This document shows, one piece after another, positions 385 through 13,357 of a stretch of 64,000 nucleotides of DNA. Numbering within the stretch: the first letter of the stretch is position 1; each line of letters starts with the position of its first letter. Source of the stretch: Escherichia coli (GTDB taxonomy: Bacteria > Pseudomonadota > Gammaproteobacteria > Enterobacterales > Enterobacteriaceae); the NCBI GenBank assembly GCA_022969815.1, contig GCA_022969815.1_4535.1; one strand, 5' to 3'. Below the pieces are notes generated by a model that saw only the letters and a program-made list of their open reading frames with translations, was not told the DNA's origin and searched no databases. A program made the position numbers and the translations under genes.

Positions 385-390
385 TACTTT

Positions 391-989: not shown

Positions 990-999
990 TTGTTTCACC

Positions 1000-1104: not shown

Positions 1105-1122
1105 GATGCTACCCTCATTAAT

Positions 1123-1350: not shown

Positions 1351-1370
1351 GTTGTTACCTTTCGTGTTAT

Positions 1371-1427: not shown

Positions 1428-1433
1428 CTATTT

Positions 1434-1619: not shown

Positions 1620-1639
1620 GATGTTTTCTCTTCTGTTTT

Positions 1640-1700
1640 GCGGTGGACCGTTCCGCCGCCCTATGTGGTAAACTATACGCGCCAACGTTCCAGGCGTCAA
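1640..1700 (-). promoter_or_regulatory. early promoter-hairpin module E5
   Basis: hairpin 1640-1659; -10 TATAGT (rc 1672-1677); -35 TTGACG (rc 1695-1700); 17-nt spacer. Confidence 0.65.
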
Positions 1701-1730
1701 GCATATTTTTAAAATTATTTTCTACAACGT

Positions 1731-1757
1731 AAAACGCCCCAGCATAAACCAGGGCGC
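1731..1757 (-). terminator. candidate intrinsic terminator after gene 1818..2045
   Basis: minus-sense hairpin GCGCCC-loop-GGGCG followed by UUUU. Confidence 0.45.
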
Positions 1758-1817
1758 ACTAATTAAATCAGATAGGGGATTGCATTGCCTTACACCTTTT
1801 AGGCTGTTAGCTGGCGA

Positions 1818-2045
1818 TTAGTAGCGTAGGATGTTTACGGATTCATCGCGCCCTAAAATATTCTCATATCTGTTTCCCCTTCCTTCGTACCAGATGATCA
1901 CGGTGTCAGGATCAAACGGATTGTTTTCGATAGCCGTTACCTTGCAGAAGTCATAAGACGGGAACGGATAAACGCCAACCTGTAAACGCGCCCGATCTCC
2001 TGGGCGAATAGTAGCGGCACGATCTGCAATGATATTGTTATACAT
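1818..2045 (-). CDS. hypothetical early protein, 75 aa
   Basis: ATG 2043-2045; no recognisable motif. Confidence 0.55.
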   Translation of the reverse strand: MYNNIIADRAATIRPGDRARLQVGVYPFPSYDFCKVTAIENNPFDPDTVIIWYEGRGNRYENILGRDESVNILRY

Positions 2046-2169
2046 GGTGCACCCCCTTAATATTTTTCTTTTTCTTTGCTTCCAACCGTCTAAGGTTACG
2101 GCTTGACTTATTGCGCAAGGCGCTTAGATCGTCGTACCCTTTCCATGCTTGCATATCTTTCGGATTCAT
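2038..2169 (-). CDS. small basic protein, 43 aa (not in ORF track)
   Basis: ATG 2167-2169 with AAGGGGGG SD 12 nt after the stop of 2181..2459; reads MNPKDMQAWKGYDDLSALRNKSSRNLRRLEAKKKKNIKGVHHV. Confidence 0.4.
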   Translation of the reverse strand: MNPKDMQAWKGYDDLSALRNKSSRNLRRLEAKKKKNIKGVHHV

Positions 2170-2180
2170 GTTATCCCCCC

Positions 2181-2459
2181 TTAACGATTATAAACATTAT
2201 GGATGGCTTCAAAGGCAAGATGACCATAAGCCGCCAAATCGGGATTGATCCAAGCGTTATCCAACATCGTTTCAAGGACTGTGGAATCATCGTATAAAGC
2301 ATCATAGAAATCTGCACGGATGATCGTTTCAATGTCGTCCGGTGTTAGTTTGTCGTTCAACTTGCACACTGTTTCAACGTCAACACCAATTTTCCAATTT
2401 TGTAAATTAGTGGTTAACATTGTTTTCATTTCTTCGGTTGTTAATTTAACGATGGTCAT
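2181..2459 (-). CDS. hypothetical early protein, 92 aa
   Basis: ATG 2457-2459, module E6 upstream. Confidence 0.6.
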   Translation of the reverse strand: MTIVKLTTEEMKTMLTTNLQNWKIGVDVETVCKLNDKLTPDDIETIIRADFYDALYDDSTVLETMLDNAWINPDLAAYGHLAFEAIHNVYNR

Positions 2460-2483
2460 GATTTTTTCTCTCTTCTGTTAGGC

Positions 2484-2538
2484 GGGGCGCTTGTCGCCCC
2501 TATGTGATACATCTTATCAGGTTGATTCAGCTTGTCAA
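2484..2538 (-). promoter_or_regulatory. early promoter-hairpin module E6
   Basis: hairpin GGGGCGCTTGTCGCCCC 2484-2500; -10 TAAGAT (rc 2511-2516); -35 TTGACA (rc 2533-2538). Confidence 0.65.
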
Positions 2539-2539
2539 A

Positions 2540-2719
2540 CTATTTGTTAGCCGGATTATATGCCAGGACCGCGCCGCTCGCTTTCACGCTTTCCGTTTCA
2601 TAGTTGCGCAGATCGTTTTCTGTAAGATTGAGCGCGATCACTTCCTCGATCTCAATGCCAGTGGCAAGGGCGATCTCTTTAATGATGTTTGATGATCTGA
2701 TAACGTTTACTGTTTTCAT
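2540..2719 (-). CDS. hypothetical early protein, 59 aa
   Basis: internal ATG 2717-2719 with AAGGTG SD chosen over the longer track ORF 2540..2776. Confidence 0.5.
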   Translation of the reverse strand: MKTVNVIRSSNIIKEIALATGIEIEEVIALNLTENDLRNYETESVKASGAVLAYNPANK

Positions 2720-2729
2720 GGTGTGCACC

Positions 2730-2849
2730 TTATAAGATGATTGATAAGATAGTGATAACGAAAGCGATAACACCAACGGCGATCGTAGTCTTACGCCCTT
2801 CAGATACTGCCGGATTCTCTACCGTGTATTCTACTGTGTATTTGTTCAT
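2730..2849 (-). CDS. small C-terminally membrane-anchored peptide, 39 aa (not in ORF track)
   Basis: ATG 2847-2849, GAGAGG SD, reads MNKYTVEYTVENPAVSEGRKTTIAVGVIAFVITILSIIL; follows module E7. Confidence 0.35.
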   Translation of the reverse strand: MNKYTVEYTVENPAVSEGRKTTIAVGVIAFVITILSIIL

Positions 2850-2872
2850 TGTGTTATCCTCTCGCTTGCTTT

Positions 2873-2929
2873 GGGAACTATTCCCGCCGCCCTATGAATT
2901 AAATATACACTATCCCAAAATGATTGCAA
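2873..2929 (-). promoter_or_regulatory. early promoter-hairpin module E7
   Basis: hairpin GGGAACTATTCCC 2873-2885; -10 TATATT (rc 2902-2907); -35 TTGCAA 2924-2929. Confidence 0.5.
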
Positions 2930-2948
2930 GCCTTTTTCTAAATTATTT

Positions 2949-3233
2949 TTATGCAGTAAACAGACCATCATTTACAACGGCGGCGATGATCTCCCGCGCC
3001 ATTGATTCAGGAAACGGGGCGCTATAGTCCTGGCTTGTCTCGTCGCTGTCTGTTACCCAATGATAAGCCAACGAGTAAAAGCCTTTACTCCCTGTTTTCA
3101 GTGAAACGATGATCACTCGGTTAAGTCCATCGGTAAACGTTGCCGTTAATGTGCTATCATCTTGCGTCATATTGGACAAGTAAGCGGCATCATTAACCAG
3201 GGAAAACAGTAGCACCGTGTTAGCTTTAACCAT
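2949..3233 (-). CDS. hypothetical early protein, 94 aa
   Basis: track ORF start lies inside hairpin E8; in-frame ATG 3231-3233 with GAGGA SD chosen. Confidence 0.55.
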   Translation of the reverse strand: MVKANTVLLFSLVNDAAYLSNMTQDDSTLTATFTDGLNRVIIVSLKTGSKGFYSLAYHWVTDSDETSQDYSAPFPESMAREIIAAVVNDGLFTA

Positions 3234-3253
3234 GATTTGATCCTCAAACGGGC

Positions 3254-3310
3254 GCGGCACCATTGCCGCCCTACGTAATACAGTTTACCCTATTTCTTCC
3301 AAAAAGCAAG
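3254..3310 (-). promoter_or_regulatory. early promoter-hairpin module E8
   Basis: hairpin GCGGCACCATTGCCGC 3254-3269; -10 TAAACT (rc 3282-3287); -35 TTGCTT (rc 3304-3309). Confidence 0.5.
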
Positions 3311-3490
3311 TTTATTTGCAATTGGTGACAAATAACGTTTACCCGCGTAAAACAGTACAGCGACACTAACCACGGCGGCGATCTCATGCATAACCGACGG
3401 GAAACGAGTATCATAATAAGATCCAATAATAGCAATAGCGGCAACGGCTGCAACGTCGATAATGATTTTTTCTTGTTTTGCGGTGATCAT
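3290..3490 (-). CDS. small membrane protein, 66 aa
   Basis: ATG 3488-3490; hydrophobic stretch DVAAVAAIAIIGSYY and VVSVAVLFYAG. Confidence 0.55.
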   Translation of the reverse strand: MITAKQEKIIIDVAAVAAIAIIGSYYDTRFPSVMHEIAAVVSVAVLFYAGKRYLSPIANKLAFWKK

Positions 3491-3514
3491 AATATTTACC
3501 TTTTTGTATGGTGG

Positions 3515-3571
3515 GGGGAACTATTCCCCGCCTGATGTAATACAGTTTAACAGGTCCGGTTATGGTGTCAA
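3515..3571 (-). promoter_or_regulatory. early promoter-hairpin module E9
   Basis: hairpin GGGGAACTATTCCCC 3515-3529; -10 TAAACT (rc 3544-3549); -35 TTGACA (rc 3566-3571). Confidence 0.6.
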
Positions 3572-3577
3572 CCACTT

Positions 3578-3763
3578 TTAAAGATATTTTATGTTGATAA
3601 CGTTTTCCGGTTTAACCTGGTTGTGATAAGCATCAATGTAAATCAAACCATCATCGGACACGCCCAGGATCACGCCTTGCGCAATAAAACCGTATTGGTC
3701 GCGGTAACGTGCTGCCACTTTGTTCGCTGCGTTGTAGGCTGTTTTAATCTCGTTTAAGGTCAT
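3578..3763 (-). CDS. hypothetical early protein, 61 aa
   Basis: ATG 3761-3763. Confidence 0.5.
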   Translation of the reverse strand: MTLNEIKTAYNAANKVAARYRDQYGFIAQGVILGVSDDGLIYIDAYHNQVKPENVINIKYL

Positions 3764-3793
3764 GTGCTGTTATACTCTCGTTAGATATAAGAA

Positions 3794-3812
3794 AGGGCGC
3801 TATTTGCGCCCT
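3794..3812. terminator. intergenic hairpin, candidate attenuator
   Basis: AGGGCGC-TATTT-GCGCCCT with T-rich flank. Confidence 0.35.
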
Positions 3813-3821
3813 TGATTTGTT

Positions 3822-3968
3822 TTAGTCTTCCAGGTCCATCCATGCACGTTTCTCGGTGCGGTCGCGCTTAGTTTTGTTGCGCTTGTCGCCCTTGCGGATC
3901 ACTTCCTCATTCCACGCTGCGCGTGTTTTGGAGGATTGGATTTTTTCGGCGCGATTAGATGTATTCAT
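3822..3968 (-). CDS. small basic protein, 48 aa (not in ORF track)
   Basis: ATG 3966-3968, AGAGGA SD, reads MNTSNRAEKIQSSKTRAAWNEEVIRKGDKRNKTKRDRTEKRAWMDLED; follows module E10. Confidence 0.4.
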   Translation of the reverse strand: MNTSNRAEKIQSSKTRAAWNEEVIRKGDKRNKTKRDRTEKRAWMDLED

Positions 3969-3992
3969 GATGTTTCCTCTTTTTAGTTGTGA

Positions 3993-4049
3993 GCGGCACC
4001 ATTGCCGCCCTACGTGTTTAAATTTACTTTATTGCTTGATGCCTGTCAA
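3993..4049 (-). promoter_or_regulatory. early promoter-hairpin module E10
   Basis: hairpin 3993-4008; -10 TAAATT (rc 4021-4026); -35 TTGACA (rc 4044-4049); 17-nt spacer. Confidence 0.65.
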
Positions 4050-4066
4050 CTACTTTTAAAAACTTT

Positions 4067-4420
4067 TTATTCGTGGGAAAGTGTAAGGATCACCCCTGCA
4101 ATATATAACCAATAGTTTTCCCTTTCTTTCTGGATCTTGTTTTCGCTACTACGTTCGTTAATGTACCCCCAGGCTGTTAACAACCGATCTACTTCCCAAT
4201 ACTCGAAAGCTATATTAATATTTGACGGCAATCCTTGTAACCATGATGCTATTGCTCTGATAATATTATGATCGTAACGTTTTTGATTATCGGTATACCA
4301 ATACTCGGATTTAAAACAGCGCATCAATTCCGCGATCTTCTCTTTATCTTCTGTGATGCCATACTCGCTATAATCAATTGAGGCCAGAATATAAAGTTTA
4401 ATTGCATTCTGTGCTTTCAT
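4067..4420 (-). CDS. hypothetical early protein, 117 aa
   Basis: ATG 4418-4420, module E11 upstream. Confidence 0.65.
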   Translation of the reverse strand: MKAQNAIKLYILASIDYSEYGITEDKEKIAELMRCFKSEYWYTDNQKRYDHNIIRAIASWLQGLPSNINIAFEYWEVDRLLTAWGYINERSSENKIQKERENYWLYIAGVILTLSHE

Positions 4421-4441
4421 GTTGTCTCTCTTCTGTTGTGA

Positions 4442-4497
4442 GCGGCACCATTGCCGCCCTATGTGTTACATCTTACCGGATTTTTAAAACTTGTCAA
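4442..4497 (-). promoter_or_regulatory. early promoter-hairpin module E11
   Basis: hairpin 4442-4457; -10 TAAGAT (rc 4470-4475); -35 TTGACA (rc 4492-4497). Confidence 0.65.
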
Positions 4498-4718
4498 TCA
4501 TTTTTTACTATCATTTGATACCCTGTTTCCAGGTTAGTAAACACCGTGATCCCGTCCTGGCGTTCACTCATAAGCAAGCAAGGCGCTAACATCCTTCCTA
4601 CTTCCTTGCACTCGTTATAAGCGGCGGTAATGTCTCCCGCTGCCTTGTCTTCTGTGGTGAATGTATCGTTCACGTAAACTTGACCAGCGACAACGGCGAC
4701 AATAGCGAAAGTGATCAT
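4494..4718 (-). CDS. hypothetical protein with hydrophobic N-terminus, 74 aa
   Basis: internal ATG 4716-4718 (MITFAIVAVVAGQVYV...) chosen over the longer track ORF 4494..4790. Confidence 0.5.
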   Translation of the reverse strand: MITFAIVAVVAGQVYVNDTFTTEDKAAGDITAAYNECKEVGRMLAPCLLMSERQDGITVFTNLETGYQMIVKND

Positions 4719-4796
4719 AATGTTTTTCTCTTTATGTGTTTCATTTCGATTAGTTGATAATACGGCAATTCGCAGATTAGTCTTTAGCAATTCATG

Positions 4797-5015
4797 CTAT
4801 TTACTCACAACAATATCGAAAACAAATTTTTCTTTGTTGTCTAAGCTCACGTATCCGATTCGACCACGCAATCCGTGAGTAGTGCCGTATTCGTAACCAT
4901 CCAGACCTTTAACCTTCCAATCCATGCCCATTAAAACCGCATTATATTTCTGACCAACTACAAAAGCGCCACCAGTTGATTCAATGCAAATAACTTTAAT
5001 TTTACGGATTGCCAT
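4797..5015 (-). CDS. hypothetical early protein, 72 aa
   Basis: ATG 5013-5015. Confidence 0.55.
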   Translation of the reverse strand: MAIRKIKVICIESTGGAFVVGQKYNAVLMGMDWKVKGLDGYEYGTTHGLRGRIGYVSLDNKEKFVFDIVVSK

Positions 5016-5054
5016 TTTCTTTCTCTCTCTGTGGTAATTGGTTTCTCTTCTCTA

Positions 5055-5090
5055 TAACGCCCATTATAGGGCGTTATAACGAAAAGTCAA
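5055..5090 (-). promoter_or_regulatory. early promoter with palindrome over the -10 region
   Basis: -35 TTGACT (rc 5085-5090), 16-nt spacer, -10 TATAAT (rc 5063-5068), palindrome TAACGCCC-ATTA-TAGGGCGTTA 5055-5076. Confidence 0.6.
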
Positions 5091-5091
5091 A

Positions 5092-5259
5092 TTATTTTTT
5101 ACGGCTTAAGGTGCCCAGGTTATCAGCGTGGCGCAAACCAGGGAAGATCCACGCGCCTGATGCATCTTTCACAGGGGCTTTAAGCGTAGCGCCCAGGTTG
5201 GCGGCGTTAACTTTACGGGCAACGTTGCGAGCGGCTTCACGGGTAGTAAAAGTGATCAT
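5092..5259 (-). CDS. small protein, 55 aa (not in ORF track)
   Basis: ATG 5257-5259, reads MITFTTREAARNVARKVNAANLGATLKAPVKDASGAWIFPGLRHADNLGTLSRKK; follows module E12. Confidence 0.4.
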   Translation of the reverse strand: MITFTTREAARNVARKVNAANLGATLKAPVKDASGAWIFPGLRHADNLGTLSRKK

Positions 5260-5283
5260 GATGTTTTCCTCTTCTCTTTGTTA

Positions 5284-5345
5284 GGCGGTGGACCATTCCG
5301 CCGCCTTGATGTAATACAGTTTACTTTATTTTGTTAAGATTGCAA
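5284..5345 (-). promoter_or_regulatory. early promoter-hairpin module E12
   Basis: hairpin 5284-5305; -10 TAAACT (rc 5318-5323); -35 TTGCAA 5340-5345. Confidence 0.55.
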
Positions 5346-5351
5346 GTAGTT

Positions 5352-5567
5352 TTATGAAATAATTGTCAAAGTAAAATCATAATCTTTTGACAGTTTATAT
5401 TGCACCTTGTTACCGTATATGTCACCTTTACGTAAAGATCCACGGATACCGATAACATCCTTCACGTCTTTTAAATTTTTCACGCCTGTAATGTCTTTGT
5501 TGAAATACTCGTCATCTGAAAATAAAACTTGACTTGCATTTTTTAACAGTGTGCGGATATTAGCCAT
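5352..5567 (-). CDS. hypothetical early protein, 71 aa
   Basis: ATG 5565-5567. Confidence 0.55.
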   Translation of the reverse strand: MANIRTLLKNASQVLFSDDEYFNKDITGVKNLKDVKDVIGIRGSLRKGDIYGNKVQYKLSKDYDFTLTIIS

Positions 5568-5591
5568 TGAGATAATCTCTCTTTGTTGTGA

Positions 5592-5647
5592 GCGGCACCA
5601 TTGCCGCCCTACGTAATACAGTTTACTCTTTTTCTTTCCGGTGTCAA
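5592..5647 (-). promoter_or_regulatory. early promoter-hairpin module E13
   Basis: hairpin 5592-5607; -10 TAAACT (rc 5620-5625); -35 TTGACA (rc 5642-5647). Confidence 0.65.
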
Positions 5648-5656
5648 CAATCTTTT

Positions 5657-5884
5657 TCAGATTAATTCATCCAGGCATAACAGGCGATCAACGTTGAGAT
5701 CGGTCAGGCTGATGGTTGGCACCTGATAGGATTCGATGTACTCGACGCTCGCATATTCCCCAAAATTAGCAATAGCCCACTTATTCAAGATCTCACATAC
5801 ATCATTAATCTTTTTATTTGTTACAACTGCAATAACCTGGGAAGTGCCAACGGTGCCGGATACGCGAACAATATTGATAGCCAT
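5657..5884 (-). CDS. hypothetical early protein, 75 aa
   Basis: internal ATG 5882-5884 chosen; the longer track ORF runs into hairpin E14. Confidence 0.55.
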   Translation of the reverse strand: MAINIVRVSGTVGTSQVIAVVTNKKINDVCEILNKWAIANFGEYASVEYIESYQVPTISLTDLNVDRLLCLDELI

Positions 5885-5906
5885 GATTTTTCTCTCTTCG
5901 TTAGGC

Positions 5907-5961
5907 GGGGCGCTTGTCGCCCCTATGTGATACATCTTACACTAATTTTAAACGTTGTCAA
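5907..5961 (-). promoter_or_regulatory. early promoter-hairpin module E14
   Basis: hairpin 5907-5923; -10 TAAGAT (rc 5934-5939); -35 TTGACA (rc 5956-5961). Confidence 0.65.
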
Positions 5962-6056
5962 ATTATTTTCTATTTCTTCCGTAATAGCCCAATTTATGAT
6001 CTAAGCTAAAACGTTTTGTTAGATAGGTTGAACGATGTTTCATTTTTATGTCTCCT

Positions 6057-6296
6057 TTACATTCCAACCATAGCGGCGCGGATTGCAGTAGTGCTATATT
6101 TGAATCCGTCCGGTGTTTTATCTTGTCCAGTCTGTTCTAAAAATAACATCATATGACGGGCCGCATCATTGCGATTAGTGTTGTCGTTAATAAAATCCAG
6201 GGCCAACCGATACAATCCCTCATCGTTATTAATCCACAGGCTTACATTCCAATGAGTTTTGTTTTTGTGACCGTTGTACATTTTAGATTTAGCCAT
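6057..6296 (-). CDS. hypothetical early protein, 79 aa
   Basis: ATG 6294-6296. Confidence 0.55.
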   Translation of the reverse strand: MAKSKMYNGHKNKTHWNVSLWINNDEGLYRLALDFINDNTNRNDAARHMMLFLEQTGQDKTPDGFKYSTTAIRAAMVGM

Positions 6297-6317
6297 GATT
6301 TTTCTCTCTTTTTGTTA

Positions 6318-6379
6318 GGCGGTGGACCATTCCGCCGCCTTGATGTAATACAGTTTACTCTTTTTCTTCGTGCTGTCAA
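6318..6379 (-). promoter_or_regulatory. early promoter-hairpin module E15
   Basis: hairpin 6318-6339; -10 TAAACT (rc 6352-6357); -35 TTGACA (rc 6374-6379). Confidence 0.65.
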
Positions 6380-6385
6380 TGCTTT

Positions 6386-6751
6386 TTATAGATCTTTTTT
6401 ACGTTTAACATCGCTTGCATGACTGTATACAGTGATCCCATTGTCACGGCAAAAACGGGAAAGATACGCACCGCGTGAAAATTCCTTGCCCTCAAGGTTG
6501 ATAACCTTGCTAAATTCTTCCAGGGCGACGGTATCGAAATGATCACCATAACCATATTGAAACGGCACGTTAACCACTTCAACCAATTTACCGCAGATCT
6601 CAACGTCTACACTTAAAGAAAAATATGTATTACCGTAGGACTGTTGAAACCAGCGACGGGCGCTAATATGCACCGCCTCAATGCTGGATAATTCAATTTT
6701 AGCCGTGTTAGCCAGGGTAGCATAAGCGGAAACATTGATATTAATAGCCAT
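6386..6751 (-). CDS. hypothetical early protein, 121 aa
   Basis: ATG 6749-6751. Confidence 0.6.
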   Translation of the reverse strand: MAININVSAYATLANTAKIELSSIEAVHISARRWFQQSYGNTYFSLSVDVEICGKLVEVVNVPFQYGYGDHFDTVALEEFSKVINLEGKEFSRGAYLSRFCRDNGITVYSHASDVKRKKDL

Positions 6752-6777
6752 GATGATAATCTCTCTTTTTGGTTAGT

Positions 6778-6829
6778 GGGAAGTATTCCCGATAAAAGTT
6801 ATTATGCTTATACTATCACTCATTGTCAA
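6778..6829 (-). promoter_or_regulatory. early promoter-hairpin module E15b
   Basis: hairpin GGGAAGTATTCCC 6778-6790; -10 CATAAT (rc 6801-6806); -35 TTGACA (rc 6824-6829); 17-nt spacer. Confidence 0.6.
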
Positions 6830-6848
6830 TAGTATAAGACTAAAACTT

Positions 6849-7028
6849 TTAACGATAATCGTTATAGGCTTTATTGACCTGGCGAATGTAACATTCGAAA
6901 GCAAGATCAATGTATTCGTATTCACGCACATAATCACCATAGGTCACTACATACATTTTTAAAGTTTCCTCATAAGCCAGGAGGATCGAATCTAAACCTA
7001 TAATCTCAGTTTTTGCAATGATAGCCAT
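6849..7028 (-). CDS. small protein, 59 aa (not in ORF track)
   Basis: ATG 7026-7028, reads MAIIAKTEIIGLDSILLAYEETLKMYVVTYGDYVREYEYIDLAFECYIRQVNKAYNDYR; follows module E16. Confidence 0.4.
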   Translation of the reverse strand: MAIIAKTEIIGLDSILLAYEETLKMYVVTYGDYVREYEYIDLAFECYIRQVNKAYNDYR

Positions 7029-7049
7029 GATGTTAACCTTTTTATTGTT

Positions 7050-7106
7050 GGCGGCACCATTGCCGCCCTACGTGATAAACTATAACAGAATTTTAAACAG
7101 TGTCAA
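7050..7106 (-). promoter_or_regulatory. early promoter-hairpin module E16
   Basis: hairpin 7050-7067; -10 TATAGT (rc 7079-7084); -35 TTGACA (rc 7101-7106). Confidence 0.65.
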
Positions 7107-7116
7107 ACGTTTTTTC

Positions 7117-7362
7117 TTAGTTTGCGAAATATGGCGCGGCGGCTGATGCCGTTAAGCTCCAAGTGATTTGACTATCGATCAAGTATTCTTCATTCTTGAT
7201 CCGCACGGTATCAATCGAGAAGTTACTAAAAGGCTTACTTTTAATTTTACGAATAACCGTTACACGGCGATCACCTTTCATCTCTTTTAACTGAATCCAG
7301 GCGTAACCTTTTTCATTGACAAAAATTTCATTGTGGTTGGTGATAGATGATAGGTGTTTCAT
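7117..7362 (-). CDS. hypothetical early protein, 81 aa
   Basis: internal ATG 7360-7362 chosen; the longer track ORF runs into hairpin E17. Confidence 0.55.
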   Translation of the reverse strand: MKHLSSITNHNEIFVNEKGYAWIQLKEMKGDRRVTVIRKIKSKPFSNFSIDTVRIKNEEYLIDSQITWSLTASAAAPYFAN

Positions 7363-7383
7363 GATTTCTCTCTTCTGTTTTGA

Positions 7384-7443
7384 GCGGTGGACCATTCCGC
7401 CGCCCTATGTGTTACATCTTACTACTTTTTTAAACATTGTCAA
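7384..7443 (-). promoter_or_regulatory. early promoter-hairpin module E17
   Basis: hairpin 7384-7403; -10 TAAGAT (rc 7416-7421); -35 TTGACA (rc 7438-7443). Confidence 0.65.
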
Positions 7444-7451
7444 GGATATTT

Positions 7452-7733
7452 TTAACTATATGATCCACATCGTTCGCAGTAGTGATCATCGTCGTCATCT
7501 GCTACCTGGCTGATAAAGTGATCAACCTTTGATTTCAGGTTTTTATAGTCGTTTTCGACTTCCTGTAGTCGTCGCTGGTAATATTCCAGGGCTTGCACAT
7601 ATGCCGCTTGTTCGGTTTTCGCTTGCATTGCTAAATTCATGCCGCGCGTTTCATCATACAGCCAATACCCATCATTGCACCCGCTAATTGATAGTGTAGG
7701 GCTTAGTTTTTCGTGGCTGATTGCCTTGCTCAT
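7452..7733 (-). CDS. hypothetical early protein with C-terminal CxxC, 93 aa
   Basis: track start is GTG; in-frame ATG 7731-7733 with AAGGTGG SD chosen; coiled-coil-like middle. Confidence 0.55.
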   Translation of the reverse strand: MSKAISHEKLSPTLSISGCNDGYWLYDETRGMNLAMQAKTEQAAYVQALEYYQRRLQEVENDYKNLKSKVDHFISQVADDDDDHYCERCGSYS

Positions 7734-7743
7734 AGTGTCCACC

Positions 7744-7935
7744 TTACAAAATGACTACGTTATCTTTTTCGTGCAGTGTGGCGGTAATGTTGCGCCCTTT
7801 GTCGCACATTAGCGAGATCTTGCGGTGATGCGGTGGCACTTTCTCGATGTGCGCTACTGTCATTGTGATCCGGTGCAATTCTACTTTGTCACCTGCTTTC
7901 AATGTTGCTACGTTGCCAGTGATATTTTTAAACAT
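7744..7935 (-). CDS. hypothetical early protein, 63 aa
   Basis: in-frame ATG 7933-7935 with AAGGGG SD chosen over the longer track ORF. Confidence 0.5.
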   Translation of the reverse strand: MFKNITGNVATLKAGDKVELHRITMTVAHIEKVPPHHRKISLMCDKGRNITATLHEKDNVVIL

Positions 7936-7945
7936 GGTGCGCCCC

Positions 7946-8056
7946 TTACTTGAAAATGATTGTTGTGATAACTGCCACGGTGATCCAAAATGGAACAACC
8001 AAGATAATAGCGTTAATAGTTCCAACTGTCAAACTATTTTCTTTCTTGATCATCAT
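7946..8056 (-). CDS. small membrane peptide, 36 aa
   Basis: track ORF 7946..8176 starts with GTG inside hairpin E18; ATG 8054-8056 with AAGGA SD gives MMIKKENSLTVGTINAIILVVPFWITVAVITTIIFK. Confidence 0.3.
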   Translation of the reverse strand: MMIKKENSLTVGTINAIILVVPFWITVAVITTIIFK

Positions 8057-8169
8057 GTTTTCCTTACAGTGTCCAAAGAATGATTTCAAGTGCAGCACGG
8101 AAACCAGGAATAAAATTGATTGCAAAAAACAGGGAAGTAGTAGACATTTTTCTATCCTTTCAGTTGTGA

Positions 8170-8225
8170 GCGGCACCGTTGCCGCCCTATGAGTTAACTA
8201 TAAGTGATCACGTTTTACCTGTCAA
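8170..8225 (-). promoter_or_regulatory. early promoter-hairpin module E18
   Basis: hairpin GCGGCACCGTTGCCGC 8170-8185; -10 TTATAG (rc 8198-8203); -35 TTGACA (rc 8220-8225). Confidence 0.55.
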
Positions 8226-8779
8226 CCTAAATCATCAAAATAAAGATAATTTTTTTCGGCTTCTTTCTTCTCTTCCTGCGTTGCCTCAAAGACTGGGAGG
8301 AAGTGATCAAAGGCTATGCACTCAACCGCGTGATCGTCTTCCTCTTCCTGGTCTTCCTCCTGGGCTATGGCTGCAATTTTGGCCAATTTCCTTTCAGCCT
8401 GGATAAGCTTACCATCTAATACGCTTTTTGCAGTACTGTACGCCGTCCAGGTGATGCGCTTACTTTCGAGCGCGGCATCAAGCGCCGCTATCTTGCTGGG
8501 GTATTCATCCAGGACACGAAAAGCCGGATCTACCTTGTACAGCGGATTATCTTTCGCGCCGTCGCTATCATCTGCGGCGCTTGCAATGTCAGCGTTACCA
8601 TTCGCCAGCCAACCAGGGCGATCGCTGCGTGTTTTGGTATTCCCATGACTACGCGCCGATCTGTTGCCTACTTGCTCGCCACTATAACCAGGAGCGTGAT
8701 CGATCATGTCATCCGGTACAATACGCGGATCATTAGCGTCATGTTTTACCCAGGACTGGATCACATATTCGCGCCCCAT
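8222..8779 (-). CDS. hypothetical early protein with acidic patches, 185 aa
   Basis: ATG 8777-8779, AAGGGG SD; acidic run QEEDQEEEDD. Confidence 0.6.
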   Translation of the reverse strand: MGREYVIQSWVKHDANDPRIVPDDMIDHAPGYSGEQVGNRSARSHGNTKTRSDRPGWLANGNADIASAADDSDGAKDNPLYKVDPAFRVLDEYPSKIAALDAALESKRITWTAYSTAKSVLDGKLIQAERKLAKIAAIAQEEDQEEEDDHAVECIAFDHFLPVFEATQEEKKEAEKNYLYFDDLG

Positions 8780-9039
8780 TATACACCCCTTTTAACAATC
8801 ATTTCACACACAAAAAATAAACTGGCGGAATCACGGCAAGGGTAGAAAGATGTGCGATAATCTCTCACCCCTGCTTTTATGATCTCCGTGGTTTTACCTG
8901 ATAGCACATTGTAAATAGTGTAACTTGTCGGACTGTTTTTATATACCTTGCCAGGGTAGATCATAACATAACGAGCAAGGTTATAAAATTCCTCGTTACG
9001 AAAAGCTATGATCTTCCCGCATACCTTAAGAAAATGCAC
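8779..9039 (-). CDS. hypothetical early protein, 86 aa (GTG start)
   Basis: GTG 9037-9039 with AGGGGG SD; alternative ATG at 8962-8964 lacks an SD. Confidence 0.4.
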   Translation of the reverse strand: MHFLKVCGKIIAFRNEEFYNLARYVMIYPGKVYKNSPTSYTIYNVLSGKTTEIIKAGVRDYRTSFYPCRDSASLFFVCEMIVKRGV

Positions 9040-9048
9040 GTTAGCCCC

Positions 9049-9321
9049 CTACAGCAAAAAGTTTACTTGTCTTGCTGTTAATGTAGTATCAACCATCTTC
9101 GGGCTTTTATAATCCACAAAGCGCGCGGTTTTTTCAATAGCGAAACCGAGATAATCTTGCTTGTTGAAATTACATTCTTTCTTAAATGTCTCCCGTGCAA
9201 TGGCGATCGCTGCGTCCAGGGATAAACGCCCGTCAATATTGATATTAGCGAAAGATCCGCCACCGCTCATAGGTTTACCAGTTGTGCCCGTTACGATCAT
9301 TGTTGCGCTATATGATGCCAT
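9049..9321 (-). CDS. hypothetical early protein, 90 aa
   Basis: internal ATG 9319-9321 chosen; the longer track ORF runs into hairpin E19. Confidence 0.55.
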   Translation of the reverse strand: MASYSATMIVTGTTGKPMSGGGSFANINIDGRLSLDAAIAIARETFKKECNFNKQDYLGFAIEKTARFVDYKSPKMVDTTLTARQVNFLL

Positions 9322-9345
9322 GATGATAATCTCTCTTAGTTGTGA

Positions 9346-9405
9346 GCGGTGGACCATTCCGCCGCTCTACGTGATACATCTTATCAGGTTGTTGCCTGTT
9401 GTCAA
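9346..9405 (-). promoter_or_regulatory. early promoter-hairpin module E19
   Basis: hairpin 9346-9365; -10 TAAGAT (rc 9378-9383); -35 TTGACA (rc 9400-9405). Confidence 0.65.
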
Positions 9406-9411
9406 TACTTT

Positions 9412-9609
9412 TTATTCAAGCCCTACGATATGTAAGACACGGCGATCAGCCGTGGCGTGCTGGTCGTCTGTTATAACGCCCATTTCTACCAGGGAATCAA
9501 GGAAGGAAAGCACCGTGATATATTCGTCATCGGGTACACTCATTTCATTAGTACCGTTTACCACTACGCTGATTTGTCCTGCTTTCGCTACTATGTGCAA
9601 TGTTGCCAT
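9412..9609 (-). CDS. hypothetical early protein, 65 aa
   Basis: ATG 9607-9609, GGAG SD. Confidence 0.55.
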   Translation of the reverse strand: MATLHIVAKAGQISVVVNGTNEMSVPDDEYITVLSFLDSLVEMGVITDDQHATADRRVLHIVGLE

Positions 9610-9720
9610 GATCTTAACTCCAGGTGATGAATGATGTTTTTTGTTGGTGGACGGTGGATTATGGAGATCCTCACCTTTGCCCGTCCTACATTGCGCCCTC
9701 CTGTTGTTTATTGTCGTTGT

Positions 9721-9773
9721 GCCTCGCCCCCCTCGACAAGATGAATACTACGCTACCAGGTGCGGAACGTCAA
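9721..9773 (-). promoter_or_regulatory. early promoter E20 (variant leader, about 130-nt 5' UTR)
   Basis: -35 TTGACG (rc 9768-9773), 17-nt spacer, -10 TAGTAT (rc 9745-9750); GC-rich leader shares a motif with E3. Confidence 0.5.
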
Positions 9774-9844
9774 CCACTTTTTCAATCTTTTTTATTTTCT
9801 TTTTGCTTGCTATATATAAAGGAAAGGGCTATCATCTTTCTACC

Positions 9845-9860
9845 GCGCCAACCAGGGCGC
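9845..9860 (+). promoter_or_regulatory. GC hairpin in the leader of the rightward gene 9883..10149
   Basis: GCGCC-AACCAG-GGCGC just upstream of the SD; AT-rich promoter-like sequence at 9795-9836. Confidence 0.35.
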
Positions 9861-9882
9861 ACAACAAAGAAAGGGCGACACC

Positions 9883-10149
9883 ATGACAACTACTACATTA
9901 CACCTCATGCACTCGTTAGGCTGGCAAGGCGGCACGGTCCACCAGGTAGCAAGCGCAACGGGCTTAAAGGTTGAAACCGTTCTCAACCTGGGCGATCATA
10001 AAGTGGAAGAGATAGATCATTTTGATTCGTTCGCTGATGGTTATTTATGGGCTTGCAGTGGCGGCGGGGAAAGCAAGATACCGCCAGGGGCGCGGGGTGA
10101 TATGTATTTTTGGTTAGGCGTTCTTGCCTGGCAAGAAGACAAAAAATAG
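9883..10149 (+). CDS. hypothetical protein, 88 aa (lone rightward gene)
   Basis: ATG 9883, AAGGG SD; divergent from the early array. Confidence 0.45.
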   Translation: MTTTTLHLMHSLGWQGGTVHQVASATGLKVETVLNLGDHKVEEIDHFDSFADGYLWACSGGGESKIPPGARGDMYFWLGVLAWQEDKK

Positions 10150-10151
10150 TC

Positions 10152-10180
10152 TTGACAAGCCCAGGGATCGGGCTTATACT
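10152..10180 (+). promoter_or_regulatory. strong sigma70-type promoter reading into the non-coding region
   Basis: -35 TTGACA 10152-10157, 17-nt spacer, -10 TATACT 10175-10180; no ORF with a start codon downstream for more than 100 nt. Confidence 0.7.
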
Positions 10181-10186
10181 GTTTTA

Positions 10187-10285
10187 CATACAGAAGAGGA
10201 AGCGCCACCCCCACGGCGTAAAGGCGGGGCTAACATACCAGGGGCACCGGTTGGAAGGTCGATCGCCGGGAGGCTGGGCGCTATA
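10187..10285 (+). ncRNA. candidate structured GC-rich transcript
   Basis: about 65% GC with complementary runs (GCGCCACCCCC, GGCGGGG, CCGG-N-CCGG) downstream of the 10152 promoter; 3' end undefined. Confidence 0.3.
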
Positions 10286-10400
10286 TATTTGTAAAGAAAT
10301 GTAAAGATAAAATAATCGCTTGCTTTCCTGGCTGGATCTGTTATTCTTATTACATGGCGAGGGGACACGGGAGCGCGAGATAATCACCGGACCTGCCCGT

Positions 10401-10640
10401 CATTCTCTAAATGAGAATGATTATCATTTACCTTATTGAATAAAAATCAATCTTATTTGGATAGTTGAATGAGAATCAATCTCATTCGCAAGGTGAGAAT
10501 AAATCTCATTTACGCTATTGAATGCGAATCATTCGTATTTACCATGTTGAATGAGAATCATTATCATTTCCGATGCGAAATGAGAATCATTATCATTCTC
10601 ATTCGTATTTCGATTTTAAGTGAGAATAATTCTCATTTCG
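10401..10640. repeat. array of about 7 inverted repeats on GAGAAT/ATTCTC and AATGAG/CTCATT half-sites
   Basis: CATTCTC-TAAAT-GAGAATG (10401-10419), AATGAGAAT-N7-ATTCTCATT, GAGAATAATTCTC (10622-10634) and others. Confidence 0.7.
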
Positions 10641-10653
10641 GTAATTTTCACGC

Positions 10654-10711
10654 AAACTTTAGAATTTGCTTTTCAACTTTCACTTTTGTAAAAGCAAAAA
10701 AACTTTAAATA
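10654..10711. repeat. 58-bp direct repeat, copy R1
   Basis: AAACTTTAGAATTTG...TTTTGTAAA...TTTAAATA, about 80% identical to R2. Confidence 0.7.
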
Positions 10712-10757
10712 CCTGGTGCGCGCGACTTTTTTAAAAATTTTTCTCGGTTTTTTTGTT

Positions 10758-10787
10758 TTGCAATCTGGTCCACCCATTTGAGATAAT
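10758..10787 (+). promoter_or_regulatory. extended -10 promoter
   Basis: -35 TTGCAA 10758-10763, 18-nt spacer, TGaGATAAT 10779-10787; predicted start at the beginning of R2. Confidence 0.45.
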
Positions 10788-10793
10788 GTGTGT

Positions 10794-10851
10794 AAACTTT
10801 AGAATTTGGTTTTGGATTCTCGTTTTTGTAAACTCATAAAAAGTTTAAATA
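10794..10851. repeat. 58-bp direct repeat, copy R2
   Basis: second copy of the R1 unit. Confidence 0.7.
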
Positions 10852-10888
10852 ATTGTAGGGATTTTTGAGATAGTTTGCTTGTAAGATT

Positions 10889-10897
10889 TGAGATAAT
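10889..10897 (+). promoter_or_regulatory. second copy of the extended -10 element ATTTGAGATAAT
   Basis: TGaGATAAT 10889-10897, weak -35; predicted start near 10904. Confidence 0.35.
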
Positions 10898-10903
10898 CTT
10901 TCC

Positions 10904-11006
10904 TGAAGATGCTACGCAGCCTACAACCTACCTGAATGCTCGTCTAACGAGGTTAACTCTAAAAGATGAGTGTTGGTGTAGCTAAAGAGAAAAGGCTCTC
11001 TACGGA
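10904..11006 (+). ncRNA. candidate small RNA, about 100 nt
   Basis: bounded by the extended -10 at 10889-10897 and a terminator; 10-bp inner stem CCTACAACCT/AGGTTGTAGG. Confidence 0.3.
10971..11006. terminator. bidirectional intrinsic terminator
   Basis: AAAA-GGCTC-loop-GAGCC-TTTTT; ends the leftward NADAR operon and the candidate rightward small RNA. Confidence 0.55.
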
Positions 11007-11090
11007 GGTTGTAGGAGCCTTTTTCTGTGGCACAAAGTTGACGTATTCTTTTTAAAAACGAATTTTTTCAAAATATCACGAATATCGCCT

Positions 11091-11618
11091 TTATGGTATT
11101 TTGGCTGGGAACAGGATTTTAATCAGATTGTTGTGGTATTGTCCTAAAAGATTCTGCCCTTTCCAGTTGGCAGGATTAAGCACCCCTGGTTCGTACATAC
11201 CCATTCCAATTCCGTAAACCTTATCATAAGGACTCGCCTCAACGAACGTTTTGAATTGGTACAGTCGCAAGTCAGAGTAAAGATCAGGGTTCTGTGTATA
11301 CTTCAAGCATAAGCCTCGCATTACGATACGCTCTCGGTACTCTTCCCACATGTCATTATTAAAACCAGACACCGCTCGACCCATACGCTTGTAGTATGCC
11401 TGTCCCTTCTCGTCGTCACGCTTCATTGAGTGATCAATGATAGCTGCTGCGATTACCTGATCCTTGAACAGCAAAGCCTTACGCCACATCATGTATTGCT
11501 CTACACAACAGAAAGTCTCACTGTATCCTGGTTCCGTCTCTGTGAATGGTGCAATGTACCAATTGCTAAACACATCTTTATGTGAAAAGAAGAATACATA
11601 TTCATCAGTTATTCGCAT
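11091..11618 (-). CDS. NADAR (YbiA-like) family protein, 175 aa
   Basis: ATG 11616-11618; resemblance to the NADAR/YbiA family over blocks FSNWY, SETFCCVEQYMMWRKALLF, DMWEEYRERIVMRGLCLKYTQNPDL, GIGMG, GQNLLGQ. Confidence 0.7.
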   Translation of the reverse strand: MRITDEYVFFFSHKDVFSNWYIAPFTETEPGYSETFCCVEQYMMWRKALLFKDQVIAAAIIDHSMKRDDEKGQAYYKRMGRAVSGFNNDMWEEYRERIVMRGLCLKYTQNPDLYSDLRLYQFKTFVEASPYDKVYGIGMGMYEPGVLNPANWKGQNLLGQYHNNLIKILFPAKIP

Positions 11619-12217: not shown

Positions 12218-13357
12218 TTAGAACACACTGCTCAGTGTTGCTGATCGTGTAGTTGTTGGCTCCAGAACTACGCGGAACGTATCTCCAGGTTTATCGCTCA
12301 CTACTACAATCTTACCACCCTCGATCAGGTCACACTTCAAACCTTCGGCAGTAGCTTTCAGGTCGATGCGTGGATCACCATCATCATCCAGGATGACGTA
12401 GCTGCTATCTTCGAGAGGCTCCAGTTCTTCGTCCTTCACTGCTTCCAGGTAGATGTTCAGTTCACATGCACCCGACAAGAACTTGGTAGGAGTGAACTCA
12501 TGCCAGTTGTTGACCCAGTTAGGCTTGATAGCTTTACCGTTGACAACAATAGAGCTAATCGTCCAGCGTGCATCGTTACCCAGAGAGATACCCATCATCT
12601 CCAGACAGGTCTTGAACGTCATTTTCGGATAGAAGTTTAACTCTTCTACGATCCCTTGAATAACATCGAAAGACAGTTCAGTGCTAACATCCCACAAACG
12701 TTGGAAGCTTTCAACATGTTTGCGATTCTTCAGATTCTTATCCAGGTAGTCCAGCATAGTTTCAATAGACAGTTTGTCGTAGTTGAAGCTATAGAAGATA
12801 CGGCTCGGACGGTTGACGAAGTATTCCGAGATGTATCCGCTGTTCTTTGTCAGCATGAACAGTTTGTTACCGCTACCTGTGCCATCCAGCAGAGTCAGCA
12901 GTGCTTCCTGATCTTCCTTCTTGGAATACACTTTGTCGAACTCATCGAACAGTACTACTGCGCGTTCAGAGATTTTACTCATGAACTCCAGGAAGTTGGC
13001 ATCAGAATATGGCTGCGTTACCAGAATAGTTGGGATTCCCAGGTCTTCCGCTTCCAACAGAGTGTTACTGATCAGTTTTGCCAGCATTGTCTTGCCACTG
13101 CCTTTTGTACCCGACAACAGGACACCTGTGTTCTTACCTTCTTTACTACGACGAGCGAAGGTACGGATAACGTGGGCTGCACGTTCTTTGGTTTCCCCGT
13201 ACAGGCGATCAGGAATCGTGAACTTATCAGCACGACTAAGAGAGTAGTTACCATGTGGATCACAATTGACAGTCCAAACGCCAGCGGGGAGTTTATCAAC
13301 CTCTACACCGAAGTCTTTATTAACAATAGCAACATCCCCGTACACTGTGTATTTCAT
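12218..13357 (-). CDS. P-loop NTPase (AAA-like), 379 aa
   Basis: Walker A GTKGSGKT, Walker B VVLFDEFD; ATG 13355-13357, GAGGAG SD. Confidence 0.75.
   Translation of the reverse strand: MKYTVYGDVAIVNKDFGVEVDKLPAGVWTVNCDPHGNYSLSRADKFTIPDRLYGETKERAAHVIRTFARRSKEGKNTGVLLSGTKGSGKTMLAKLISNTLLEAEDLGIPTILVTQPYSDANFLEFMSKISERAVVLFDEFDKVYSKKEDQEALLTLLDGTGSGNKLFMLTKNSGYISEYFVNRPSRIFYSFNYDKLSIETMLDYLDKNLKNRKHVESFQRLWDVSTELSFDVIQGIVEELNFYPKMTFKTCLEMMGISLGNDARWTISSIVVNGKAIKPNWVNNWHEFTPTKFLSGACELNIYLEAVKDEELEPLEDSSYVILDDDGDPRIDLKATAEGLKCDLIEGGKIVVVSDKPGDTFRVVLEPTTTRSATLSSVF

Follow-up and report, generated by a model that had tools for sequence, protein, structure and literature searches.

A Fur-Box Array in a Conserved Non-Coding Module of rV5-Like Phages, a Candidate Region for Replication Control

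Introduction

Transcription-activated phage origins are represented by the primary origin of T7, in which promoters 1.1A/1.1B are combined with an AT-rich zone, by oriF/oriG of T4 and by the lambda ori, and the titration of a regulator by its own binding sites is familiar from the E. coli locus datA for DnaA and from the Fur titration assay with multicopy Fur boxes. The present study deals with a gene-free gap at positions 10150-11090 of a 64-kb stretch of DNA, hereafter the window, which belongs to a ~150-kb Escherichia coli myovirus of the subfamily Stephanstirmvirinae ("Wecvirus"/Phapecoctavirus-like), and in particular with an array of palindromes in this gap whose identification as Fur boxes is well supported. 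The gap is flanked on the left by a plus-strand gene for an 88-aa protein (9883-10149) and on the right by the end of a minus-strand gene (11091-11618). Among database records, phiWec188 and phiWec190 come closest, with 97% identity over the region, and both phages have recently been proposed as the genus "Wecvirus" (PMC12695924).

The native Fur clusters of E. coli are among the known systems closest to such an array. As many as 14 sites have been reported in a single cluster of ~140 bp, an overlapping register of 6 bp (or 3 bp) is regarded as the signature of true clusters, and 83% of the clusters overlap a sigma-70 promoter (PMC2189734). A further system of interest is the injection stop of phage T5, which has been attributed in a preprint to DnaA boxes, without mention of Fur (Davison, bioRxiv 10.1101/866236).

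The Palindromic Array and the Fur Box

The array and the sites scored in it are listed below, with scores taken from the matrix described in the next paragraphs.

10407-10640, no strand assigned: array of 8-9 Fur-box palindromes, unit AATGAGAATCATTCTCATT, 29-bp period
Fur-matrix sites, left part, position (bits): 10407 (12.1), 10413 (22.0), 10436 (10.5), 10465 (13.5), 10471 (13.8), 10495 (15.1)
Fur-matrix sites, right part, position (bits): 10547 (18.0), 10553 (18.3), 10576 (15.7), 10582 (20.8), 10622 (11.6)

The first-pass annotation had recognized about seven inverted repeats on GAGAAT/ATTCTC half-sites at 10401-10640; the repeats are indeed present, and their number and span are corrected here to 8-9 and 10407-10640. 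Tandem Repeats Finder assigned the array a period of 29 nt, 6.7 copies and the consensus AATGAGAATCATTCTCATTTACCATGTTG; a separate repeat search returned a 32-nt unit seven times, mostly at intervals of 29 bp, together with an 82-nt higher-order repeat. Eight of the 12 window-wide matches to TGAGAATNATTCTCA (at most three mismatches) are located inside the array, and none of 100 shuffled sequences reached 12 matches. Moreover, two units of the array match the textbook Fur consensus GATAATGATAATCATTATC at 16 of 19 positions, where 0.05 such matches would be expected by chance.

A BLAST search of the array against E. coli genomes gave no match, the sites being too short, and a footprint-based matrix was therefore constructed. 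This palindromic 19-nt matrix was derived from 13 DNase-footprinted regions of E. coli K-12, with the coordinates of Chen et al. 2007 (PMC2189734), and it converged on the textbook consensus, with training sites scoring 11.4-23.5 bits and leave-one-out scores of 8-22 bits. Scanning with the matrix retrieved 11 sites of at least 10 bits within the 256 bp of 10395-10650, including nine of at least 12, six of at least 15 and four of at least 18 bits, with a maximum of 22.0, whereas simulations with the local composition predicted 0.48 sites of at least 10 bits and never produced more than five in 2000 trials. All four sites of the window that reach 18 bits fall in the array, and the 63 kb of the window outside the module hold a single site of at least 15 bits. 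Four pairs of sites (10407/10413, 10465/10471, 10547/10553 and 10576/10582) are offset by exactly 6 bp.

Comparison with individual operators led in the same direction. The ryhB (AATAATCATTCTCATTCGCA) and fecI (ATGAGAATGGTTATCATT) operators of E. coli carry the same GAGAAT/ATTCTC half-sites as the phage units, the Fur-box consensus of Xanthomonas (AATGAgAATcATTctCATT) equals the phage unit letter for letter and contains the 13-mer AATGAGAATCATT, and the Fur boxes of A. baumannii contain this 13-mer as well. A literal text search for the 13-mer found papers that, by title, are mostly concerned with iron or Fur. These results give good support to the identification of the palindromes as Fur boxes, which match as well as the best native E. 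coli operators, and for the same reason a reading of the GAGAAT/ATTCTC repeats as phage-specific iterons is not supported. From the quality of the sites we infer that Fur occupies the array.

The position of the array relative to promoters is unusual. Inside it only weak promoter-like matches were detected (10538-10567, 9/12), and the nearest conserved promoter, P2, precedes it by ~60 nt. In 4MG-like relatives the Fur box is followed after 12-15 nt by the start of a strong promoter.

Conservation and Organization of the Module

In 140 phage records the left 390 nt of the gap are conserved at ~92% identity, and a less stringent search found the module in 346 records of rV5-like phages. Its carriers comprise Phapecoctavirus, Justusliebigvirus (phi92) and Vequintavirus (rV5, Murica, BASEL phages), as well as rV5-like phages of Klebsiella, Cronobacter, Pectobacterium (phiTE), Enterobacter and Salmonella. 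The parts that precede the array are the following.

10152-10180, plus strand: promoter P1, sigma-70 type TTGACA-17-TATACT, 11/12 consensus match
10187-10283, plus strand: near-invariant GC-rich non-coding segment 'RNA1', with the core CACGGCGTAAAGGCGGGGCTAAC at 10212-10234
10291-10305, plus strand: direct repeat GTAAAGAAATGTAAA (GTAAA-N5-GTAAA) just upstream of P2, an exact match to the published CpxR motif
10320-10347, plus strand: promoter P2, with -35 TTGCTT at 10320-10325 and -10 TATTCT at 10342-10347
10354-10405, plus strand: short GC-rich segment 'RNA2' (...GAGATAATCACCGGACCTGCCCGTCATTCTC) between P2 and the first Fur box

The core of the GC-rich segment (CACGGCGNAAAGGCGGGGCTAAC) is invariant, and 16 viral contigs were recovered when it was used as a query. 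An origin of the core from the host was rejected on the basis of no match in 5,426 complete E. coli genomes and a single one, in a contig of a metagenome-assembled genome, among 185,579 species genomes; on these searches the core is phage-specific. Alignments of the 16 viral contigs revealed a common order of parts with common distances, namely P1, the ~95-nt GC-rich segment, the GTAAA repeat, P2, the ~50-nt GC-rich segment and the first Fur box. The strong promoter at 10152-10180 noted earlier is thus present as P1, whose hexamers and 17-nt spacing are kept in all lineages as the spacer sequence diverges, and the ~95-nt segment behind it is almost invariant even where the neighboring 88-aa protein falls to ~40% identity. 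P2, which lies below the threshold of the sigma-70 promoter scan, is likewise conserved across lineages in position and hexamers (TTGCAA/TTGATT; TATATT/TATTAT). The short GC-rich segment is conserved in all lineages, rV5 carrying two tandem copies; rV5-type phages are devoid of the long GC-rich segment and possess two tandem units, each consisting of a promoter, a short GC segment and a Fur box.

Measured from the core, the first Fur site falls at +186 to +242 in 14 of the 15 other loci of sufficient length; in the remaining one it is at +930, and that locus carries an inserted open reading frame. In this viral contig (L039), the module is interrupted between the GC-rich segment and P2 (alignment columns ~100-300) by ~700 nt of additional DNA with a ribosome-binding site and an ATG, and the GTAAA repeat is lost; the insertion may be a mobile gene, for instance one for a homing endonuclease. 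Relatives carry from 2 to 11 Fur sites, starting with one double site, and the 9-11 sites of the window form the largest array seen, which differs from that of phiWec188 by one 29-nt unit. In two loci (L016 and L027) the module is flipped as a whole with respect to the 88-aa gene, and it therefore behaves as an autonomous block.

The direct repeat upstream of P2 was assessed against the CpxR motif of the GTAAA-N5-GTAAA type taken from PMC9600279. It is the sole match in 64 kb, with 0.27 expected by chance, it is kept (TGTAAAGAAATGTAAAGA) in 15 of 16 aligned sequences, being lost only in L039, where the insertion lies, and it ends a few nucleotides before the -35 hexamer of P2. In the clade of the window, an insertion of 10-11 nt separates the box from the -35; this is about one helical turn, so that the phase between the two is preserved. 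The arrangement of a CpxR-dependent promoter, GTAAA-N5-6-GTAAA upstream of the -35, is present at 10291-10305 as a consensus match, and the repeat is offered as a lead, a putative CpxR site upstream of P2.

Coding Potential, Transcripts, and RNA Structure

The stretch behind P1, which had been described as GC-rich and non-coding, contains 57-59% GC over 10150-10300, and relatives differ in it by indels of 1, 5 and 10 nt, which shows that it is not coding. For the gap as a whole, protein coding was rejected owing to indels of 1, 5, 10 and 29 nt among relatives; the open reading frames listed in it (e.g., 10469-10708) run through the repeat array. In the records of relatives (PsgM04F, WPEC1, Bas54/55/58, rV5 ORF198), two to five small 'hypothetical proteins' have been annotated over the non-coding module. 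The initial picture of a non-coding, promoter-driven and highly organized region with promoters, repeats and AT-rich DNA is therefore sustained, and the region is conserved as a unit across the rV5-like supergroup.

Support for a structured RNA was sought in alignments. RNAalifold predicted 16 pairs for the long GC-rich segment, of which 15 are invariant and one covaries (A-U in nine sequences, G-C in seven, none broken), so the covariation proposed as a check exists and is limited to that pair. The folding energy of the segment is ordinary (z = -1.0), and there is a hint that it forms a hairpin at the RNA or DNA level. At one pair of the closing stem of the short GC segment, ~6 of 15 sequences show an A-C mismatch (alignment read by eye). 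Rfam returned no match at gathering thresholds in the 64 kb, and at E values up to 10 only chance miRNA-like matches on the palindromes appeared over the region.

At the right end of the gap, a further transcript can be suspected, which is listed here with the distal motif that follows it.

10904-11024, plus strand: possible ~120-nt terminal transcript, ending in a bidirectional hairpin terminator
11066-11088, plus strand: distal motif CAAAATATCACGAATATCG (AAATATC class)

The hairpin itself occupies 10994-11024 (GGCTC-T-CTAC / loop GGAGGTT / GTAG-GAGCC), with an A-run before it and a T-run after it, and on the minus strand it also ends the gene cluster of the NADAR-domain neighbor; the bidirectional terminator first placed at 10971-11006 is thus real, and its position had to be shifted. 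The 10-bp internal stem also exists (10920-10929 with 11006-11015), but as a competitor of the hairpin, and relatives retain it only in part. The ~120-nt stretch has a folding z-score of -3.3, and the hairpin is conserved in Phapecoctavirus relatives, whereas the internal fold is not. With no meaningful Rfam match, a known RNA family was rejected.

These observations bear on an alternative in which the gap is an iron-responsive non-coding RNA locus, whose small RNAs act in trans and whose output or read-through is controlled by Fur. The conserved promoters are followed by no open reading frame, ~85 nt are nearly invariant and include one cleanly covarying pair, a promoter-like element and the terminal hairpin define the ~120-nt unit with its low z-score, and Fur-repressed small RNAs are an established class, with RyhB as an example whose operator resembles the phage units. 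The lack of any Rfam family even at permissive thresholds, the 15 of 16 predicted pairs that never vary together with the ordinary folding energy, the unconserved fold of the terminal transcript and the position of the Fur boxes downstream of P2, not over it, all speak against such a locus, which we consider unlikely.

The AT-Rich Zone and Transposon Data from Bas54

The GC content is 26-34% over 10400-10900, and this zone contains several families of repeats.

10654-10711, plus strand: 58-bp direct repeat, copy 1, ending in AAAAACTTTAAATA
10727-10760, no strand assigned: A/T tract TTTTTTAAAAATTTTTCTCGGTTTTTTTGTTTTG within the 26-34% GC zone
10777, 10864 and 10887 (zone 10777-10900), plus strand: three copies of TTTGAGATA, two of them read as extended -10 (TGaGATAAT)
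10794-10851, plus strand: 58-bp direct repeat, copy 2, ending in AAAAAGTTTAAATA

Both 58-bp direct repeats were found where they had been reported, with 81% identity to each other, and their 3' motif is invariant in relatives. The ~95-nt repeats of relatives contain AAAAAATTTTTT tracts similar to the A/T tract at 10727-10760. The two extended -10 copies are exact matches to ATTTGAGATAAT at 10776 and 10886, as had been described, and alone they are weakly significant (14 of 100 shuffles); promoter-like matches were located at 10758-10787 and 10778-10805. Motifs of the TTTGAGATA type are repeated in other lineages, e.g., TTGAGATA four times in L026 and TTTTGAGATA in L033; these lineages also have iterons of the GATCGAGA type, along with long direct repeats and A/T tracts. 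A role of AAAAASTTTAAATA as a genome-wide phage promoter motif was rejected, for no enrichment was seen outside the gap. The AAATATC cluster is placed at +710 to +875 from the core, on the same strand, in all 15 loci, with two to five copies at 10-13-bp spacing in most of them and one exact copy in the window and in phiWec188; the motif is not enriched over the window as a whole.

Data on the importance of the module are available from a relative. In a preprint on transposon mapping of phage gene essentiality (HIDEN-SEQ, 10.1101/2025.11.20.689424), which includes the V5-like phage Bas54, the following values are given for TA sites hit by insertions.

bas54_0100: 1/3 TA sites hit, not classified
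bas54_0101 (34 codons): 0/11 TA sites hit, "Essential"
bas54_0102: 5/15 TA sites hit, "Strong fitness defect"
18 neighbors, bas54_0091-0099 and 0103-0111: 73-100% of TA sites hit in 17, 9/31 in 0110
Classes of the same 18 neighbors: 15 "Non-essential", 0095 reduced fitness, 0103 intermediate, 0110 "Essential"

By size and order, bas54_0100-0102 correspond to bas55_0098, 0099 and 0100, which cover the module in Bas55. Mapped on the Bas55 sequence, the interval with the strong defect equals the two units of promoter, GC segment and Fur box, and the interval with no insertion equals the AT-rich stretch directly after the Fur boxes, leading into the GAAAACGAAAAA..GATCGAG repeats; the A/T tract at 10727-10760 of the window takes the same position as this interval with 0/11 insertions. 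The module hence matters for growth in at least one relative, and its intolerance of insertions in Bas54 fits a cis-acting element such as an origin. For the RNA locus discussed above, it counts as a further difficulty that the least tolerant interval of Bas54 is AT-rich repeat DNA and not the GC-rich segments.

The preprint authors comment only on a different insertion-free gap of ~2 kb, Bas54 92,785-95,298 (10.1101/2025.11.20.689424). By the published coordinates this gap is ~11 kb from the module in Bas54 (~10 kb in Bas55), and as a separate locus it was rejected as the module. Its counterpart in Bas55 (MZ501082.1) is a gene-free gap of ~2.55 kb between convergent genes at 90967-93522, in which no tRNAs, tandem repeats or Fur cluster were found.

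With regard to the architecture, P1 and P2 both point rightward into the zone of 26-34% GC, and the origin-like repeat classes comprise the 58-bp repeats, the three copies of TTTGAGATA and the helically spaced AAATATC cluster, which are putative iterons. The architecture of an origin or regulatory locus proposed at first is borne out in its promoters, repeats and AT-rich DNA and agrees with the intolerance in Bas54, and the initiation of replication here is putative. Judged from the sequence and this comparison, an origin or replication-control function is the most likely one for the module.

Fur Boxes in T5 and in Terminal Repeats

A low-stringency search with the array matched T5-like phages. 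In the Salmonella phage 8sent1748, AAATGAGAATCATT units follow paired DnaA boxes in a large untranslated region and reach up to 23.4 bits. In T5 itself (AY587007.1), the features 'direct repeat C copies 1-4' and 'palindromes E-I' at 9468-9637 score 13.7/12.3, 18.5/18.8 and 20.6 bits, with half-site units in addition, and these Fur-type repeats sit at the estimated shear point of the first-step transfer (~9618), just before the 7.9% nick. The Phapecoctavirus Schickermooser (MK373788.1) has a perfect 329-bp terminal repeat (1-329 = 150866-151194), in which the matrix finds a site of 17.2 bits and a pair with 6-bp offset of 17.8/18.9 bits; the DNA immediately upstream of the right repeat adds sites of 13-15 bits. 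Phage-derived DNA with Fur sites is also known from the prophage loci nohA and nohB of E. coli K-12, where strong predicted Fur clusters (22-25 bits) occur upstream of terminase-like genes (PMC2189734, Table 4), that of nohA being confirmed by gel shift (PMC2189734).

Could the module then be a signal for packaging or DNA entry, similar to the injection stop of T5 or to a pac or terminal site? In T5, 'direct repeat C / palindromes E-I' at the boundary of the first-step transfer consist of the same Fur-type units, the Phapecoctavirus terminal repeat also holds Fur boxes, and an essential phenotype in cis would fit. A terminus or packaging site was nevertheless rejected, because in Schickermooser the module is ~13.4 kb away from the mapped 329-bp terminal repeat and because phiTE carries the module yet is circularly permuted. 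The long terminal repeat at a first-step-transfer boundary that typifies T5 is not seen at the module, the Bas54 module lies ~81 kb from the terminase operon (position 1 of the published map), and DnaA boxes of the T5 kind were rejected, with no TTWTNCACA in 10150-11090 and all five matches of the window elsewhere. Such a signal is therefore regarded as highly improbable. The 'pseudo-ToxI' antitoxin-mimic locus of phiTE was also rejected as a counterpart, since it maps at 106.7 kb and the module at 39.6 kb in phiTE.

Fur boxes are concentrated in cis-acting non-coding DNA of two unrelated groups of virulent enterobacterial phages, and a host protein is thereby favored as the binder over a lineage-specific phage protein. 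The opposite possibility, that the palindromes are bound by a phage-encoded initiator or repressor and that the likeness to the Fur box reflects mimicry or coincidence, could draw on the regular 29-bp spacing of the units with partly conserved flanks, on the location of the array among other phage-specific repeat families and on the small conserved 88-aa gene that adjoins the module in several lineages. It is confronted with the same units in unrelated T5-like phages, with scores equal to those of the best native operators together with the Fur-specific 6-bp offset, and with an 88-aa gene that was not detected beside 4MG-like modules and shows no match to a DNA-binding domain. We know of no binder common to rV5-like and T5-like phages, and we regard a phage protein as distinctly improbable, less so than a packaging signal.

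Favored Explanation, Fur Titration, and Opposing Points

The explanation that we favor, tentatively and with somewhat less than even confidence, is that the gap is a conserved cis-acting origin or control module of replication that is transcribed by host RNA polymerase, loaded with Fur and gated by iron. Host RNA polymerase would fire rightward from P1 and P2 toward the AT-rich, repeat-bearing DNA. Dimers of Fur-Fe2+ would occupy the array, whose ~8 operators include several able to hold two dimers, and would build up a nucleoprotein block that separates the promoters from the AT-rich repeat zone. Such a block may gate or shape the promoter-driven opening or priming at the AT-rich zone, and the gate would couple the activity of the module to the iron status of the host, with the hairpin possibly terminating transcription from both sides. 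The array appears to have expanded from one or two ancestral operators to 8-9 in this lineage, and replicated phage DNA would consequently soak up much of the cellular Fur as a side effect.

It is possible in principle that this titration is the main function, the array acting as a Fur decoy (sponge) that removes Fur as genomes multiply, derepresses iron uptake, RyhB, etc., and in this way feeds iron-dependent phage enzymes such as ribonucleotide reductases. The 8-9 strong operators have no gene downstream on that strand, the variation from 2 to 11 sites among close relatives through gain or loss of 29-nt units is as expected under selection on dosage, and the V5-like relative Bas55 encodes ribonucleotide reductases of classes I and III. 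The Fur pool amounts to ~5,000-10,000 molecules, and by our own estimate with this pool size, ~16 dimers per genome in at least 100 genomes would approach it. However, most lineages carry one double site at a fixed distance from P2, which points to an ancestral role that was positional, regulatory or architectural, and titration leaves unexplained both the essential AT-rich and repeat part and the Fur boxes in a terminal repeat and in the single-copy first-step DNA of T5. A decoy as the main function is accordingly judged about as unlikely as the RNA locus.

Several points weigh against the favored origin or control module. The array sits between promoters and not on one, unlike 83% of the E. 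coli Fur clusters, and its regular 29-bp spacing with partly conserved spacers is unlike native clusters; such regularity could reflect a recent duplication or a different binder. The support for RNA structure is thin (z = -1.0, 15 of 16 pairs invariant). Bas54 is a distant relative whose module is without the long GC-rich segment, and its intolerance of insertions could be due to an essential RNA or to a technical bias of the screen. Finally, the separate insertion-free gap of ~2.5 kb, ~11 kb away in V5-like phages, could be the real origin.

Neighboring Genes

The 88-aa gene at 9883-10149 (plus strand) contains the motif GWQGGTVHQV and adjoins the module in Stephanstirmvirinae, in phiTE-like and in some other phages, in either orientation (loci L012-L025). 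A domain search returned no informative domain and no DNA-binding domain for it, and beside the module of 4MG-like lineages it was not detected; on both grounds it was rejected as an obligatory partner of the module.

On the other side, the minus-strand gene at 11091-11618 encodes a 175-aa protein with a NADAR domain (Pfam, E = 2.4e-33), which is labeled 'GTP cyclohydrolase II' in several related records, apparently a mis-annotation. NADAR domains are associated with the reversal of ADP-ribosylation, and the neighbor may be an anti-defense gene. Three genes to the right of the module, 12218-13357 (minus strand) encodes a 379-aa AAA-type ATPase, a 'putative ATPase' in relatives. To the left of the module (window 7000-9700, minus strand; 1-5600 of locus L001), very small minus-strand genes follow one another over a long distance, all annotated as hypothetical and many of them ~50-100 nt apart, which is typical of an early host-takeover region. 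The tRNA/tmRNA search of the window found no tRNA or tmRNA genes.

Significance and Comparison with Known Systems

The identification at the sequence level is solid, and the functional reading is weaker. Fur boxes are a textbook feature of iron regulation in bacteria. The literature searched, including the T5 preprint, yielded no account of virulent phages that carry conserved clusters of Fur boxes in non-coding DNA. Fur boxes and phage origins are each known, and in the texts searched no description was found of a conserved Fur-box cluster in an insertion-intolerant non-coding phage module that has counterparts in the injection-stop repeats of T5 and in a terminal repeat. Hundreds of deposited genomes mark the module as nothing or as tiny hypothetical proteins; the "gene" bas54_0101 was scored essential in the transposon screen, and the non-coding module went unrecognized. 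If the module is an origin or serves replication control, it would open the way to the study of replication in a large group of phages in therapeutic use (phAPEC8, phi92 and relatives of rV5), and if Fur binds, iron status would be a determinant of phage development or of host reprogramming, which is relevant in the iron-poor gut and at infection sites.

A broader proposal is that rV5-like and T5-like phages recruit host Fur to key cis DNA as a structural factor or iron checkpoint, with expanded arrays also titrating the iron regulon. We put it forward as a speculation that is doubtful, though slightly less so than the decoy or the RNA locus. The Fur reading turns 'direct repeat C / palindromes E-I' at the injection stop of T5 into a testable question, and if the proposal were true, Fur recruitment would be a testable candidate for what stops T5 DNA transfer at 8%, a question that is decades old.

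In comparison with T5 Repeat Region 3, the injection stop (Wang et al., AY587007; Davison, 10.1101/866236), the module is likewise a large, untranslated, repeat-packed region with the same AAATGAGAATCATT units. The T5 region differs in being part of a 10-kb terminal repeat at the first-step-transfer boundary, whereas the module is internal to the genome, and it contains paired DnaA boxes and GTGCGAATCCGAC repeats, neither of which is present in the module of the window.

The array shares with the enterobacterial Fur clusters (fepA-fes, entC, fhuF, ryhB, iucA; PMC2189734) the 19-bp box, the 6-bp register and comparable or higher scores. Unlike them, it belongs to a virulent phage, does not lie over a clear promoter, has no downstream gene and keeps a regular 29-bp spacing over 234 bp inside a larger conserved non-coding module. 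Like titration loci, it combines many putative high-affinity sites for one regulator with the lack of a regulated gene and with copy-number expansion, and it departs from them in its ancestral state of one or two sites at a fixed position.

The module resembles the transcription-activated origins in that promoters lead into repeat-flanked, AT-rich non-coding DNA and in that the counterpart of a relative barely tolerates insertions, and it is set apart from the origins of T7, T4 and lambda by its host Fur boxes and its CpxR-type repeat.

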